From IMG/VR virus record IMGVR_UViG_2874920711_000004, positions 1-27,192 of that record: a stretch of DNA of 27,192 nt; one strand, given 5' to 3'. This DNA comes from a virus. Taxonomy: Duplodnaviria > Heunggongvirae > Uroviricota > Caudoviricetes. The position numbers were made by a program. Positions 10,301-16,300 of this stretch are shown one piece after another (the first letter of the stretch is position 1; every line of letters begins with the position of its first letter).

Positions 10301-13300
10301 CGGAAGAAATGCGCCGTAAATTGCTGGATATTTCCTGCACATCGGAAAAGTCTTCCCGCTTTGGTTTCAACGTTAATCTTTAATTAACCCCATCCCCGAT
10401 CACATATCGGGGATTAAATTAAATATCTGGATTAATTAACCGGAGGATTTGTCATGCTCAAACCTCACTACGGAACCGCATTAGTTTCTCGCGAGGACGT
10501 TAAACCCGGTACAGCAATTCTTTACAACGGGCGTTATTACATGGCGTCAGCTAACGTTAATAATGCACTTTACGCACATTCACTGATTGAAAAAATCCGC
10601 ATTATTTCAGATGCAATCGAAGTTTACCTGAACCATAAAGGCCAACCGTTAATCTCACCAGCCTGAAAGGAAATATCATGCTCAATCAAAAAATTAATAT
10701 CAATGTAAAAAACGTCATAACGCCAGCAGAAACGATAATGGGAGAAGTTTTTATGGATGATAAAATCATCGCCTATTTTGTCGTCCTGCCTGATGAGGCT
10801 ATTTCTGTTATTGATACGGAAGGCAATGTTATGTTTATCGCGGAACATTCAGAAGACATCGCATTACAGGCCGCTGCATATTTCTTCGCTAAAGAGCAGG
10901 AGGAAGAATGTAACTGCCCTGTCTGTCAGCTTTCCCGACAAATTAATTTAATGCATTAACCGGAATCAGGAGTTCCGCCATGAACGCATACCTCACCTGC
11001 GACCGCATAGAGGAGCGTCGCTGGGTTAATCAGCATATTCAGGATGAAAAGGATAAATGGATTGATGATCGGGCGCAGGAGCTTATCAGCATGTTCCCCG
11101 ATAAACCATTGCTTATGAGCAGCCTTTTTTTACCCAAAGAAGCCCAACTGGCACTCACTGGCGAAAAAGCTGAAGAGGCGTACAACGATTATATCTCAGC
11201 GATCGCCTATGCTCGGGCGGAAGAAGAATGGGAGAGAAAATTCTCCCCTGTCCTTTCTGATTTTCAGGACCAAAAAAATGTTCGATATCGTTGAATTTGT
11301 TAAGCAGCAGGAGCGCTTTTTCTGCAAGGCATTAACTGAACCGACGCTGACATGGGCGAAGGAAAGTCAGTTTGCAATTCAGCAATTCCAGAAAAATGCC
11401 TTTCTGGCTGACACAGCACGGGCAAATCTGCCCAGCGCACAGAACGCTATCATCAATGTTGCCGCCATCGGCATAACCCTGAACCCGGCCAGCAAGCTGG
11501 CGTATCTGGTCCCACGAAAAAAGGCTGTATGCCTGGATATCAGTTATATGGGGCTTCTGCATCTGGCACAGGTCACAGGAGCCATTCAGTGGGGCAATGC
11601 AAACTTGTTTACGAGAAGGACATTTGAGGTGTACTGGCAATAGCGGACACTACCATTTGTTCTTTTTTTAAGCAGCCATCTGATGATATTTTTCCCTGAA
11701 GGCTGCCGGGGAGATATTCCCCAGACGAGAGTGACGACGCTGACGATTGTAGAAAATCTCAATGTATTCCCGTATTACTGAGATGGCTTCATCCCGGTTA
11801 TTAAAACGATAGTGGCTCAGGCTCTCATTTTTCAGCGTTCCCCAGAAGCTTTCCATCGGAGCGTTGTCGTAACTGTTACCTTTACGCGACATTGATGTTT
11901 TCAGACCAGACTGCTCCTGTATGACCCGGTAATCGTATGCGCAGTACTGTGAACCTCGATCAGAGTGGTGGATTAGCCCGGCAGGTGGGCGCTGGCTCCT
12001 GAGCGCCATAAACAGGGCTTTACCTGTCAGCTCTTTTGTCATGCGCTCTCCCATGGCGTAGCCGACAATTTCGCACGTATAAACATCTTTGATGCCAGCG
12101 AGGTACAACCATCCCTCCTGTGTGGCAACATACGTCAGGTCCGCCACCCAGACCTGATTTGGTGCTGTAGGAGCGAACGTCTGGTTCAGCATATTTGGCG
12201 CAACTGGCAGATTGTGGTTCGGGTTCGTAGTCGCTCTGAACTTGCGTTTCTGCTTACAGCGTAGCCTTAGCTCCTTACGAAGACGTGCCAGTCGGTCACG
12301 ACCAACGATGATGCCATTCTCTGCCAGCTCCGTCTGGAGCCGCCGGGTTCCATATGTTTCGCGAGTGCGGATATGTGCCACCTTAATCTCCAGTTTTAGC
12401 CGCTCATCACTTTGTTTTCTGTCTGAGGGTTCATGCTGTACCCAGTTGTAATAACCGCTCCTGGATACACCAAATACCTGACACATCGCTTCAATGGGAA
12501 ATTGTTGTCGCCATTGTTCGATTAACGCGTATTTTTCAGCGACTCCTGTGCAAAATACGCTGTTGTAGATTCAATCTGTCAATGCAACACCCCTTTCAAT
12601 TATCTCTTTCGGTGTTTTGAACTTCAGTGTCTTTCTCGGTCTGTTGTTTAGCTGAGCAGCAACCAGATCTAGTTCATGTTGAGTATATTGGGCAAGACAT
12701 GTCTTTTTAGGAAAGTACTGCCGAATTAGCCCATTTGTGTTCTCATTTGTTCCCCGCTGCCAAGGACTCTGAGGATCGCAGAAGTAAACTTTAACGCCGG
12801 TGCTGACAGTAAATTCTAGATGTCTGGCCAGTTCCATTCCTCTGTCCCATGTCAGTGATTTTCTGAGTTCTGACGGTAAACTCAGGAATTTGTCGGTAAG
12901 AGCCTGATTTACTGAGACAGAATCTTTGCCCCTGAGTCTAAGGATGATCGTATAACGTGATTTTCGGTCTACAAGTGTGGCTATATGAGAGTTTTTTGTA
13001 CCTGAGACTAAATCGCCCTCCCAATGCCCCAGAGAGCGTCTGTTATCGATATTTCGGGAACGTTCGTGAATTGGTGTTCCGTTCACTATGTTAATCGTAC
13101 CTCTTTCGCCTTTGCGGGTATGACGCCTGCCATGGCGAAGGCTATGCGACCGTCGCAGATGCTGTATATTCAGGTGGTGTAGCGCTTCACGGCTACGAAA
13201 GTACAGCGTTTTATAAATTGTCTCAGGTGATATTCGCAGCGTTTTTTGACGTGGTTTTGTTCGCCTTAACCATCCTGATATTTGCTCTGGAGACCATTTC

Positions 13301-16300
13301 ATCTCCAGCTTTTCCAGAACAAGCTTTCGCAATGGTAAATTTTGATCCAGTAAGCACGGTTTTGGCCTTTTCGCCATTCTGTTGGCTCGGTTATTAGCAT
13401 CAACAGCTTTGTAATAGCGTCTGCCCCGATTACGCTGAACTTCACGTGAGATCGTCGAAGGACTGCGATTCAGCGCAGTAGCTATCGCACGAATGCTCAT
13501 TTTGGCTGACAAACCAGCTCGTATCTCCTCGCGCTCAGACAGTGTCAGGTGAGCTACAGCCCGCTTACGCTCATGGGGTTTTATGCCGCCAGTATCCCTT
13601 AACATAGTGAAGATCGTTCCGGGTTTTGAACCCAGGATATTCGCTATTTCACTGAAGCCTGTTCCGTTCTTCCATAGTTCAAAAACAGAGGCTTTTTCCT
13701 CTGCTGTAAATGTTCGTCTCATTCAAAAAACCTCCGCAACCCCATGTTTTCACATAACTGTTGCGTTGACCAATTGAATCTACAGTAGCCTTTTTTAATA
13801 TTTCATTCTCCATTTCAATGCGTTGTAGCTTTTTCCTCAGCTTACGTATTTCGATTTGTTCTGGTGTTATCGGAGAGGCTTTTGGTGTTTTGCCCTGACG
13901 CTCATCACGCAGTTGTTTGACCCATCTTGTCATTGTGGAAAGGCCAACATCCATAGCTTTGGCGGCATCTGCCACCGTGTATTTCTGGTCAACAACCAGT
14001 TGAGCGGATTCGCGTTTAAACTCTGCGCTAAAATTTCTTTTTTTCATTGGAGCACCTGTGTTGTTCTGAGGTGAGCATATCACCTCTGTTCAGGTGGCCA
14101 AATTCAGTGTGCCACTTCAGAGAAAGCAACGTGGGGTGTGTGGTCGCTCGAATATGGAGAGGAGAAACTTGATGCTGATGATGCGCTAATTCACCGTGAA
14201 GTTGTTGGATATCTTCCTATTTGCAGAATTGAAGGAGCGCATCCTGAAAGCGGTTTCGATGAAGATTTCCAAATGGAACAGCAGGCCAATGCTGAATTCA
14301 TCGCCGCAGCCAATCCGGCTACTGTGCTGACACTGCTGAGCGAGCTGGAAACAGCAAAAAAGCGCATAGCAGAACTGGAAGCCAAACCTGTAAGCCAGAC
14401 TTACAAGTTGAATGAGATGTCGGGCAACTCTCCGGTAATTCCGGATGGTTGGATAAGCTGTAGTGATCGAATGCCTGAAAAGGGCCAGAACGTACTTATT
14501 TCGGTGAATTTCGATAGCTCTCTGGTTGAACCGCTAATATGCTCCGCACGCTATACCGGAGGTACATTCCGGCGTGGAGATGTAACGGTTAAGCCAGGTA
14601 ATGGTATTGAACAGGCAACCCACTGGATAGACTGGCCCCCTGAATCTCCAGACAACCAGTATCACTTAAATAAGTGATAGTCTTAATACTAGTTTTTAGA
14701 CTAGTCATTGGAGTACAGATGATTGATGTCTTAGGGCCGGAGAAACGCAGACGGCGTACCACACAGGAAAAAATCGCAATTGTTCAGCAGAGCTTTGAAC
14801 CGGGGATGACGGTCTCCCTGAACCGCCCCGGGTTTCCTGGAGAGTGTTTTATCTGTGAACTCAGGCTGCCAGATCATCGTTTCCGATGGAAGCATAATAA
14901 GCTTTTTCTGCTTCTGCCGGAGGAGTATGGCCCAGCCTTTCCAGAACCATACGGACTGCCCGTTGACGGACTTCGGGGGAAAAACGAGTATTTTTAGTCA
15001 TCCTGTTTACCTCTTTCTCAGGAAGTTTAGTCTCCAGGATTCCCGGGGCGGTTCACCCTCGTTGCCCGGCAACATGGTGTAGCAGCCAGCCAGTTATTTC
15101 TCTGGCGTAAGCAATACCAGGAAGGAAGTCTTACTGCTGTGGCCGCCGGAGAACAGGTTGTTCCTGCCTCTGAACTTGCTGCCGCCATGAAACAGATTAA
15201 AGAACTCCAGCGCCTGCTCGGCAAGAAAACGATGGAAAATGAACTCCTCAAAGAAGCCGTTGAATATGGACGGGCAAAAAAGTGGATAGCGCACGCGCCC
15301 TTATTGCCCGGGGATGGGGAGTAAGCTTAGTCAGCCGTTGTCTCCGGGTGTCGCGTGCGCAGTTGCACGTCATTCTCAGACGAACCGATGACTGGATGGA
15401 TGGCCGCCGCAGTCGTCACACTGATGATACGGATGTGCTTCTCCGTATACACCATGTTATCGGAGAGCTGCCCACGTATGGTTATCGTCGGGTATGGGCG
15501 CTGCTTCGCAGACAGGCAGAACTTGATGGTATGCCTGCGATCAATGCCAAACGTGTTTACCGGATCATGCGCCAGAATGCGCTGTTGCTTGAGCGAAAAC
15601 CTGCTGTACCGCCATCGAAACGGGCACATACAGGCAGAGTGGCCGTGAAAGAAAGCAATCAGCGATGGTGCTCTGACGGGTTCGAGTTCTGCTGTGATAA
15701 CGGAGAGAGACTGCGTGTCACGTTCGCGCTGGACTGCTGTGATCGTGAAGCACTGCACTGGGCGGTGACTACCGGCGGCTTCAACAGTGAAACAGTACAG
15801 GACGTCATGCTGGGAGCGGTGGAACGCCGCTTCGGCAACGATCTTCCGTCGTCTCCAGTGGAGTGGCTGACGGATAATGGTTCATGCTACCGGGCTAATG
15901 AAACACGCCAGTTCGCCCGGATGTTGGGACTTGAACCGAAGAACACGGCGGTGCGGAGTCCGGAGAGTAACGGAATAGCAGAGAGCTTCGTGAAAACGAT
16001 AAAGCGTGACTACATCAGTATCATGCCCAAACCAGACGGGTTAACGGCAGCAAAGAACCTTGCAGAGGCGTTCGAGCATTATAACGAATGGCATCCGCAT
16101 AGTGCGCTGGGTTATCGCTCGCCACGGGAATATCTGCGGCAGCGGGCTTGTAATGGGTTAAGTGATAACAGATGTCTGGAAATATAGGGGCAAATCCACT
16201 GGATGCCGCTACCAGAACCGCCGCAGGAGGTGAAGTGATGGACGATAACAGCGATAATGTTATCACCCTGGTGCAGCCAAAATCAGAGGAGGAAGGACTT

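Follow-up and report, generated by a model that had tools for sequence, protein, structure and literature searches.

IS30 hot spots are nearly palindromic, with insertion at the central 2 bp and a 2-bp duplication (PMC9333248). The lambda hot spot LHS (Olasz/Kiss laboratory) is a target of this kind, and so are the windows in IS911 and IS600 described below. Two annotated structures in E. coli K-12 already combine IS30 with these elements, namely IS911A::IS30A (insN/insI1) in CP4-6 and IS911B - IS30D - IS600 fragment - IS911B-1 (insO/insI3/insM) in KpLE2. We analysed a 27,192-nt stretch of a Caudoviricetes virus record (the window) and found the three elements of KpLE2, at the same two target positions, in a composite of 2495 bp on the minus strand at 11625-14119. 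As in the window, IS30 in CP4-6 lies after IS911 nt 335 in the same orientation, and the left junction (GGCTAC/TGTAGATT) is identical. The AC duplication is present in CP4-6. Unlike the window, CP4-6 has the remainder of IS911, not IS600, beyond the IS30 right end, and its IS911A diverges by 10%, with 33/335 differences. KpLE2 retains the complementary junction, IS600 nt 1-327 joined to the IS30 left end, which is the partner of the window's junction between the IS30 right end and IS600 nt 326 onwards. However, its IS30 runs in the opposite direction with respect to the 5' part of IS911, its IS600 piece is the 5' 327 bp, inverted, whereas the window has the 3' 938 bp, and the rest of IS911 then follows. 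The composite is a known kind of nested-IS scar with sister structures already annotated in K-12, and for the window itself this inherited junction is of small significance.

The segments were mapped by BLAST of the window against full IS911, IS600 and IS30 copies from the same window. Read on the minus strand, the order is IS911 nt 1-335 (14119-13785), IS30 of 1221 bp (13784-12564) and IS600 nt 326 to its end (12563-11625):

11625-12563, minus strand: IS600 3' fragment, IS600 nt 326 to the right end, with the right inverted repeat at 11625
12564-13784, minus strand: complete IS30; its left repeat meets IS911 at 13784/13785 and its right repeat meets IS600 at 12564/12563
13785-14119, minus strand: IS911 5' fragment, nt 1-335, with the left inverted repeat (TGAAGTGGCAC..) at 14119
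13790-13796, minus strand: IS911 slippery heptamer A AAA AAG, within the left half of the IS30 target (TTAAAAAAGGCTAC)

The three BLAST segments, all on the minus strand, were IS600 nt 1263 to 324 at 11625-12565, IS30 nt 1221 to 1 at 12564-13784 and IS911 nt 335 to 1 at 13785-14119; the IS600 match runs on by 2 nt into the tip of IS30 through coincidental identity, and the true IS600 part is 11625-12563. This fragment is without the left repeat and orfA, carries orfB (rve) from an internal ATG (11668-12486) and differs in 3 places from the full IS600 copy (3159-4421); DNA identical to it bears the RefSeq annotation 'IS3-like element IS600 family transposase'. The IS911 fragment has orfA cut after ..ENEILKKAT and is without orfB and the right repeat. 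It shows no differences from the full IS911 copy at window 1-263 over the overlap, and 4 from the annotated K-12 IS911B. The IS30 has ~26-bp imperfect terminal inverted repeats starting TGTAGATTCAAT (23/26 match, as befits IS30) and an intact transposase ORF of 383 aa at 12571-13722 with HTH_38 and rve domains, and is 1 nt from K-12 IS30D and 2 nt from K-12 IS30A; with a predicted DDE-transposase ORF and its N-terminal HTH, it is complete. IS30 starts 5 nt past the heptamer A AAA AAG at 13796-13790, the established frameshift site of IS911, and the IS600 part starts 5 nt past where the IS600 A7 run would end. The element identities, boundaries and frameshift-window position given in the initial annotation proved exact to the base by BLAST and direct reading, and the DNA flanking IS30 is truly derived from IS911 and IS600, matching nt 1-335 and nt 326 to the end of full copies in the window. 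The composite also accounts for the truncated 'IS3 family transposase' pseudogenes annotated on either side of IS30.

Direct reading places GT at 12562-63 and 13785-86, on both sides of IS30. In the orientation of the elements, the last two bases of the IS911 fragment (13786-13785) and the first two of the IS600 fragment (12563-12562) are each the AC of the IS30 target, but these flanks belong to two different elements. The matching dinucleotides noted initially are therefore real, but they are not the 2-bp duplication of one target: they are halves of two separate AC duplications, at IS911 nt 334-335 and IS600 nt 326-327. Both parental simple insertions with the AC duplication were found when IS30 was sought within the two elements. 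IS30 in IS911 (..GGCT AC[IS30]AC CGCG..) occurs in K-12 CP4-6, Kluyvera georgiana and metagenomes, and IS30 in IS600 (..AAGCA AC[IS30]AC AGCG..) in E. coli EC-TO143 and metagenomes. These findings support one of two origins suggested at the outset, in which IS30 copies in IS911 and in IS600 were later joined. Of 63 complete IS30 copies among the matches listed, 25 are flanked by sequences that do not match each other, in many cases one half from each of two IS3 elements.

Taken as a whole, the composite is very probably an IS30-bridged chimera of two IS3-family elements, produced by two insertions, their joining and recombination with a prophage. The IS30 transposase chooses a ~24-bp quasi-palindromic target and duplicates its central 2 bp. 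IS30 would have entered IS911 and IS600 independently, at the homologous AC, because a near-perfect IS30 target lies in the (I)LKKAT-encoding stretch and the next 11 nt of each. The two copies would then have merged into one, either through homologous recombination or through the IS30 pathway of dimer formation and deletion, fusing IS911 nt 1-335 to IS600 nt 326 to its end over one intact IS30. The AC/GT flanks would match since the two distinct targets have the same dinucleotide at their centre. The merger is probably ancient, the module having since been inherited widely in E. coli and Shigella. We infer both the order of these events and the enzyme that joined the IS30 copies.

The other origin first suggested was one IS30 insertion into a ready-made IS911/IS600 hybrid, formed in the short conserved ILKKAT region, in which case GT/GT would be a true duplication. 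The 2-bp flanks do match, and the hybrid site would also suit IS30 as a target. However, none of 5426 complete E. coli genomes covered an IS30-free chimera (140-nt query), against 878-1284 for each parental IS30 junction; the shared identity at the junction is only ~5-13 nt; and IS30 commonly bridges other IS3 pairs without matching flanks, for example with GC/AC in STEC346. We consider this origin very improbable. Among the same 5426 genomes the junction of IS30 with the IS911 3' part was present in 878, that of the IS600 5' part with IS30 in 1284 and that of the IS911 5' part with inverted IS30 in 1216, and the reciprocal product (IS600 5' - IS30 - IS911 3') was not seen among the matches listed.

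A single primary IS30 insertion, for example in IS600, is a more serious competitor, though still rather unlikely. Here a copy, or a derived (IS30)2 dimer or minicircle junction, would attack the equivalent hot spot in a nearby IS911 on the same molecule with deletion of the intervening DNA, and RecA-dependent recombination of resident copies would be needless. IS30 dimers do form from distant copies, and their IR-IR junction acts with hot spots to give deletions and inversions (PMC9333248). The KpLE2 arrangement, with the right end of IS30 joined to the 5' part of IS911 and with IS600 lying inverted inside IS911, is most simply explained by this route. The product of this route is identical to that of homologous recombination, and the sequence does not discriminate between them; against it, the species has many copies of each simple parental insertion, which provide plentiful substrates for homologous recombination.

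We found that IS30 targets the same region of IS3 elements repeatedly. IS30 left-end flanks abutted the (I/F)LKKA frameshift window of IS3 elements in 94 of 130 cases among the matches listed (~72%), 52 on the orfA side and 42 on the opposite side (both orientations), although genome and metagenome flanks are not independent, many of them being one inherited insertion, and gut E. coli is over-represented. At least 8 IS3-family lineages, defined as being below 88% nt identity, were hit at this window, and 89% of complete IS30 copies among the matches listed touched an IS3 frameshift window. The scan of species-representative genomes gave only 13 IS30 loci, so metagenomes were scanned as well. 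One abundant IS3 element among the flanks, 'ERDILKKAAAYFAKLS', carries only the RefSeq label 'IS3 family transposase'. Recurrent targeting of the IS3 frameshift region, as the initial annotation had proposed, is strongly supported, although the enrichment may be partly survivorship, insertions into other insertion sequences being neutral.

The A-run by itself does not set the target. The flanks of IS30 outside IS3 elements gave a 24-bp quasi-palindrome, TNAANAANGCN[RY]NGCNTTNTTNA, and 38-53 representative half-sites yielded the consensus T N A A N A A N G C N [R Y]. When the intact 24-bp sites of IS600 and IS911 were compared with this empirical consensus, in line with the initial advice, a position weight matrix (PWM) trained without IS3-derived sites, although possibly including a few half-sites from unrecognised IS3 relatives, ranked the IS600 site first (17.4 bits) and the IS911 site second (16.0) of 27,168 window positions, and both fell within the top 3 over 1.0 Mb of fetched loci. 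A matrix from 5 duplication-verified non-IS3 insertions placed the IS600 site 16th and the IS911 site 2nd. The non-IS3 matrix also located LHS at its exact published base, lambda 33290/33291 (coordinates from PMC9333248), at rank 2-3 of 6000, and our accord with the published 24-bp consensus was judged by this coordinate and the wording 'nearly palindromic' (PMC9333248). LHS scores 10.5-12.0; the IS911 and IS600 sites score higher and are located within other mobile elements. Both the IS911 site, TTAAAAAAGGCT-AC-CGCGCTCTTGA, and the IS600 site, TTAAAAAAAGCA-AC-AGCGTATTTTG, are near-perfect IS30 target matches. Judged from sequence, the determinant is a match to the 24-bp IS30 hot spot, made up of the codons TTA-AAA-AAR-GCN and the next ~11 nt, not the A-run alone. 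IS2, which is also present in the window, has a frameshift region too, yet contains no high-scoring IS30 site. The result is a compact, testable rule for IS30 targets, TNAANAANGCN[RY]NGCNTTNTTNA, which the Leu-Lys-Lys-Ala codons of IS3 frameshift sites happen to encode. Should IS30 prefer this target in vivo as strongly as its scores imply, it could serve as a predictable insertion agent or be guarded against as one, and nesting of one IS in another would systematically promote recombination between IS3 elements that are unrelated, and be more than a curiosity.

A wider and more doubtful generalisation, which we offer tentatively, is that the IS3-family frameshift window is the principal natural landing site of IS30, making IS30 a 'parasite of parasites'. 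Other insertion sequences would then be neutral safe havens for IS30, which inactivates them, and IS30 would then provide portable homology through which IS3 elements, together with their flanks, are reshuffled. No statement of this generalisation was found in the literature searched; a 2026 paper remarked on the shared 334-bp position without generalising (PMC13463583). The IS elements that target REP sequences (PMC1525189) resemble IS30 in their sequence-specific choice of target and their build-up in repeated neutral sequence. Unlike theirs, the repeated target of IS30 is a coding frameshift window of another IS family, and the host element is inactivated.

The module was present in 990 of 5426 complete E. 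coli genomes (992 records), counted where the arrangement covered at least 80% of the 2495-bp query. It is real but ordinary, since about one fifth of these genomes share it. The initial concern that the junction might be an assembly chimera at repeated IS sequences rests on the general risk at repeats and nothing further; because the same arrangement occurs in 990 independently assembled genomes, and also in species-representative genomes and metagenome contigs, it is no assembly artefact, and we regard that chance as negligible. The composite formed outside the present genome, NCBI CP026824.1, as a pre-existing module. Modules in the leuX island of many E. coli, such as MS 21-1 and DP051, and on plasmid pJSWP006_2 have the window's boundaries at 99.3-99.8% identity, with 6 differences from the window copy in MS 21-1. 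The leuX-island modules truncate a P4-type integrase beside tRNA-Leu, whereas that in the window has recT' and ea22' of a lambdoid prophage as its neighbours. Three points went beyond the initial annotation: the module is apparently old and is widespread, its K-12 sister structures are annotated, and its present flanks were probably reached by IS-mediated inversions.

The precise IS ends recur in at least 4 contexts (the window, the two leuX-island variants and pJSWP006_2), as would be expected if the module were itself a mobile unit, with the IS911 left repeat and IS600 right repeat served by an IS3-family transposase in trans. However, the 3-bp duplication of a transposing unit was seen in 0 of 4 contexts (att/gag, gaa/aac, tgt/aac, gca/tat), the two module ends match at only 12/30, OrfAB cannot be made, and the window's IS600-side flank was demonstrably acquired from another IS600 copy by recombination. 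Mobility of the module is thus extremely improbable.

The window holds the partners for such recombination together with the displaced prophage genes:

1-1176, plus strand: full IS911 copy; the window begins at IS911 nt 73; inverted partner of 13785-14119
1177-3158, minus strand: displaced inverted prophage segment with the recT C-terminal part, exo (YqaJ), a DUF669 gene and an abc2-like start
3159-4421, plus strand: full IS600 copy, next to recT-C' at its left end; inverted partner of 11625-12563
11278-11624, plus strand: N-terminal part of recT, cut off by the right repeat of IS600
14120-14677, plus strand: Ead/Ea22-DUF551 gene, next to the left repeat of IS911 and missing ~39 nt at its start

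Both full copies have an unoccupied IS30 target, at 251-274 in IS911 (AC at 262-263; PWM rank 2 of 27,168) and with AC at 3484-3485 in IS600 (rank 1 of 27,168). The displaced segment, which holds the first 27 codons of the anti-RecBCD (abc2-like) gene, has its natural place between 11624 and 14120, now filled by the composite. The pre-formed module would have recombined with two resident elements of a lambdoid prophage, one full IS600 lying in recT and one full IS911 lying between abc2 and ea22. Two such crossovers, each involving inverted repeats, would have brought IS30 into the place of recT'-exo-abc2' and inverted that segment to 1177-3158. The 3 differences between IS600 copies provided no diagnostic markers for locating the crossovers or separating the module's IS600 lineage from the resident copy; only a 1-nt indel among them is common to the E. 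coli copy of the module, and the SNPs yielded no lineage markers by which the crossovers could be dated or located.

The IS911 at 1-1176 and the ea22 flank do not fit a simple insertion, as there is no duplication (ctc versus ttt). In 41 genomes abc2' and ea22' lie on one strand, ~0.4-0.7 kb apart. We infer an IS911-associated deletion at the ea22 flank, because ~0.4-0.7 kb is missing there compared with intact prophages. On the other side, the ATT flank of recT-N' pairs with AAT at 3156-3158 as the 3-bp IS600 target duplication, and the recT halves rejoin in frame once one ATT is removed; recT-N' carries an additional 1-nt frameshift. The rejoined recT has a single-piece 99.1% match in intact EHEC prophages. 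Three insertion sequences have scrambled a Shigella-type prophage, with recT split and recT'-exo-abc2' shifted by 8.5 kb and inverted. The presence of ipaH and the IS load suggest that the host genome is Shigella.

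The IS911-IS30-IS600 composite (2495 bp, window 11625-14119, minus strand) was mapped with the window's own copies of the elements as references, which resolved three segments:

Window 14119-13785, minus strand: IS911 nt 1-335
Window 13784-12564, minus strand: IS30, complete, 1221 bp
Window 12563-11625, minus strand: IS600 from nt 326 to its right end

This mapping and a direct reading of 11000-14800 confirmed the segment limits proposed in the initial annotation, and the reading also bore out the GT that it had noted on both sides of IS30. Written in IS orientation, the junctions are ..ATATTAAAAAAGGCT-AC/IS30/AC-AGCGTATTTTGC.., with the IS911 side first and the IS600 side last. 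IS30 therefore starts 5 nt past the IS911 heptamer A AAA AAG, and the IS600 part starts 5 nt past the expected end of the IS600 A7 run. The IS30 copy has terminal repeats of 23/26 and an intact transposase ORF (383 aa, HTH_38 and rve domains), and differs from K-12 IS30D by 1 nt and from K-12 IS30A by 2 nt.

Two histories had been offered for this arrangement: entry of IS30 into a pre-existing IS911/IS600 chimera, or the joining of two IS30 copies that had landed at homologous positions in IS911 and IS600. We found parental insertions of both kinds. In the annotated CP4-6 of K-12, IS30A splits IS911A at the base used in the composite and with the same orientation; the junctions (GGCT-AC/IS30/AC-CGCGCTC) carry an AC duplication and are those of a simple insertion. 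A complete simple IS600::IS30 insertion is present in EC-TO143, where IS30 is interrupted by ISEc52, and in metagenomes. Furthermore, K-12 KpLE2 is annotated as IS911B(1-334), inverted IS30D, IS600(327->1) and IS911B-1 from about nt 454; it retains IS600[..327]AC/IS30-left, the exact partner of IS30-right/AC[326..] in the window. The junctions recurred as follows among 5426 complete E. coli genomes:

IS30-right / IS911[334..]: 878 of 5426
IS600[..327] / IS30-left: 1284 of 5426
IS911[..335] / inverted IS30: 1216 of 5426

An IS911/IS600 chimera without IS30 was found in none of the same 5426 genomes. Because the parental IS30 junctions are present and the IS30-free chimera is absent, these results support the joining of two IS30 copies and not insertion into an existing chimera. 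The matching "duplication" flanking IS30 is a central dinucleotide that the two homologous targets share. The sequence fits either of two routes by which the copies may have become one: RecA-type recombination, or the dimer and deletion pathway known for IS30 (PMC9333248).

The initial annotation had also suggested that the A-run frameshift region is a recurrent target, and a scan for IS30 left ends, which returned 13 loci in species-representative genomes and at least 120 metagenome contigs, agreed with this. Among the matches listed, which are not independent events, 94 of 130 usable left-end flanks (72%) were the (I/F)LKKA-coding stretch at the frameshift site of orfA in an IS3-family element, the family of IS911 and IS600. 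The 94 comprised 52 orfA-side flanks and 42 from the opposite side, so IS30 uses both orientations. Likewise among the matches listed, 56 of 63 complete copies with both flanks touched such a frameshift window; the 2-bp flanks matched in 38 of the 63 and did not in 25, and many non-matching copies joined halves of two different IS3 elements. At least eight IS3 lineages, each below 88% nucleotide identity, have been struck: IS911; the 10%-divergent IS911A of K-12; IS600; an abundant element with OrfA ..ERDILKKAAAYFAKLS; two or three IS911-like elements (..NTILKKA, ..ENDILKKA); an element with ..EKEILKQAA, possibly ISEhe3 (compare PMC13463583); and one with ..EIEFLKKA. Part of this enrichment must come from the neutral survival of copies inserted in other insertion sequences.

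Two further members of the family of IS30-bridged chimeras are present in E. coli STEC346 (locus L006, 7160-7520) and E. coli ECDA1023, in which IS30 has GC on one side and AC on the other and connects a 5' part resembling ISEhe3 or IS911 with a 3' part from IS600 or IS911. In two metagenome contigs, the IS30 ends lie 3180 bp (L122) and 2446 bp (L064) apart, compared with 1221 bp, and these copies may be interrupted, as IS30 is by ISEc52 in L005, or may lie in a tandem or dimer-like arrangement.

Representative IS30 half-sites followed T(-13) N A A N A A N G C N [R Y](-2,-1), giving a 24-bp quasi-palindrome, TNAANAANGCN[RY]NGCNTTNTTNA, that remained after IS3-derived half-sites were taken out. 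A position weight matrix (PWM) trained only on the 38 half-sites left after that removal placed the empty site in the full IS600 (AC at 3484) first of 27,168 window positions at 17.4 bits and that in the full IS911 (AC at 262) second at 16.0 bits; the next best scored 12.0, against a background mean of -11.7 (sd 7.7). The best three 24-mers in 1.0 Mb of fetched loci were also IS3 frameshift windows (KKATAYF, KKASAYF and KKATALL). With a matrix from just five duplication-verified non-IS3 insertions, the IS911 site ranked 2nd and the IS600 site 16th. As an external check we used LHS, the natural lambda hot spot for IS30 (lambda 33244-33498), whose left half ends at 33290 (PMC9333248). The PWM placed a site exactly at 33290/33291, ranking 2-3 of 6000 positions with a score of 10.5-12.0, lower than the IS3 windows. 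These scores indicate that the determinant is TTA-AAA-AAR-GCN plus a partly symmetric downstream half and not slipperiness as such. By PWM, the window's IS2 offers no comparable site.

It was known that IS30 has dual target specificity, nearly palindromic hot spots and a 2-bp duplication (PMC9333248), and that both K-12 IS911 copies are interrupted by IS30 (K-12 annotation; PMC9333248). A 2026 paper reports IS30 at the same 334-bp position with ISEhe3 as the 5' partner (PMC13463583). The generalisation that IS3 frameshift windows are the main natural target of IS30 was not found in the literature searched, although Olasz et al. 1998 may contain it. The target rule, its breadth across IS3 lineages and the family of IS30-bridged chimeras are a mildly interesting by-product.

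The composite itself, counted as present at coverage of at least 80% of 2495 bp, occurs in 990 of 5426 complete E. coli genomes. In many of them it truncates a P4-type integrase beside tRNA-Leu (leuX), and it is also found on a plasmid; the MS 21-1 copy and that in the window show 6 differences over 2495 positions. No 3-bp duplication surrounds the composite in any of the four contexts compared, so it does not move by transposition as a single unit. Recombination with further copies of IS600 and IS911 alters its flanks, as in the window. The composite is best described as an old, common module, a real but ordinary nested-IS scar already known in kind.

This recombination can be followed in the window from these features:

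Window 1-1176, inverted relative to the composite: full IS911 (the window begins at IS911 nt 73)
Window 3158-2553, minus strand: C-part of a recT-like gene, adjoining the left repeat of the full IS600
Window 3159-4421, inverted relative to the composite: full IS600
Window 11278-11624, plus strand: N-part of the recT-like gene, adjoining the composite's IS600 part at the right repeat

The two recT pieces are flanked by ATT and AAT, and deleting one copy rejoins the gene in frame (..KLVYEKDI/YESNGID..); the rejoined gamL-recT-exo-DUF669 DNA gives a one-piece 99.1% match to EHEC prophages. Two truncated genes mark the other boundary. An anti-RecBCD (abc2-like) gene, of which the first 27 codons are left, borders the right end of the full IS911 copy at 1177, and an ea22/DUF551 gene lacking about 39 nt at its start borders the left end of the IS911 part of the composite at 14120. 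In 41 E. coli genomes both pieces are found on the same strand, separated by about 0.4-0.7 kb. The rejoined recT and the abc2/ea22 order together place segment 1177-3158 (recT'-exo-DUF669-abc2') exactly where IS30 now lies. No 3-bp duplication links 1177 and 14120 (ttt versus ctc), and about 0.4-0.7 kb is missing there relative to intact prophages (the remainder of abc2, DUF2737, DUF7446 and ~39 nt from the start of ea22/DUF551), suggesting an IS911-associated adjacent deletion.

In the simplest history, a ready-made composite would have lain in inverted orientation next to the prophage, between a truncated 221-aa ORF and the helicase-side flank at 4422. IS30 would then have been exchanged for 'IS600[1-325]-segment-IS911[336-end]' by a pair of crossovers, IS600 x IS600 and IS911 x IS911. 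The first crossover is demonstrated; the second we infer from gene order. The 221-aa ORF (MTNDLFINGRKIDSF..), of unassigned function, lies left of the window start in the fetched locus L143 (12630-13202), where it adjoins the left end of the full IS911 and has an IS630-type transposase and a resolvase as neighbours; this side is likely the composite's original flank.

Besides the IS600 insertion, the recT N-part carries an additional 1-nt frameshift in a G run (window ~11585-11595; ..AIQWG/..KLVYEKDI), which is either a genuine pseudogene lesion or an error of homopolymer sequencing. The full IS600 has 1 nt fewer at window ~4335 (IS600 nt ~1177) than the composite's IS600 part and E. coli copies, so that its orfB C-terminus is shifted to ..NISRQPS.. 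in place of ..NISPAAFREKYHQMAA.

A second IS-in-IS nesting of the window is a 237-bp miniature element (14819-15055) in orfA of IS2 (~14690-16250). It has IS629/IS1203-type terminal repeats (TGAACCGCCCCGGG..), keeps only the start of orfA (minus strand), and lies between a 3-bp CCC duplication (14816-18 and 15056-58). Just past a lambda-type integrase (19148-20221), an ipaH-type effector gene (20784-22544) is split into an LRR ORF (20784-21347) and a NEL E3-ligase ORF (21678-22544), an arrangement indicative of a Shigella-type ipaH prophage island whose effector has become a pseudogene. The window belongs to NCBI CP026824.1, and its ipaH gene, lambda-type integrase and IS load suggest Shigella. 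Adjacent paralogous ORF6N/antirepressor genes (17103-17885 and 18211-18867) share ~77-80% nucleotide identity over their 5' parts, and a perfect 245-nt direct repeat (26621-26865 and 26948-27192, 327-nt spacing) lies in an IS66-family region at the window end.
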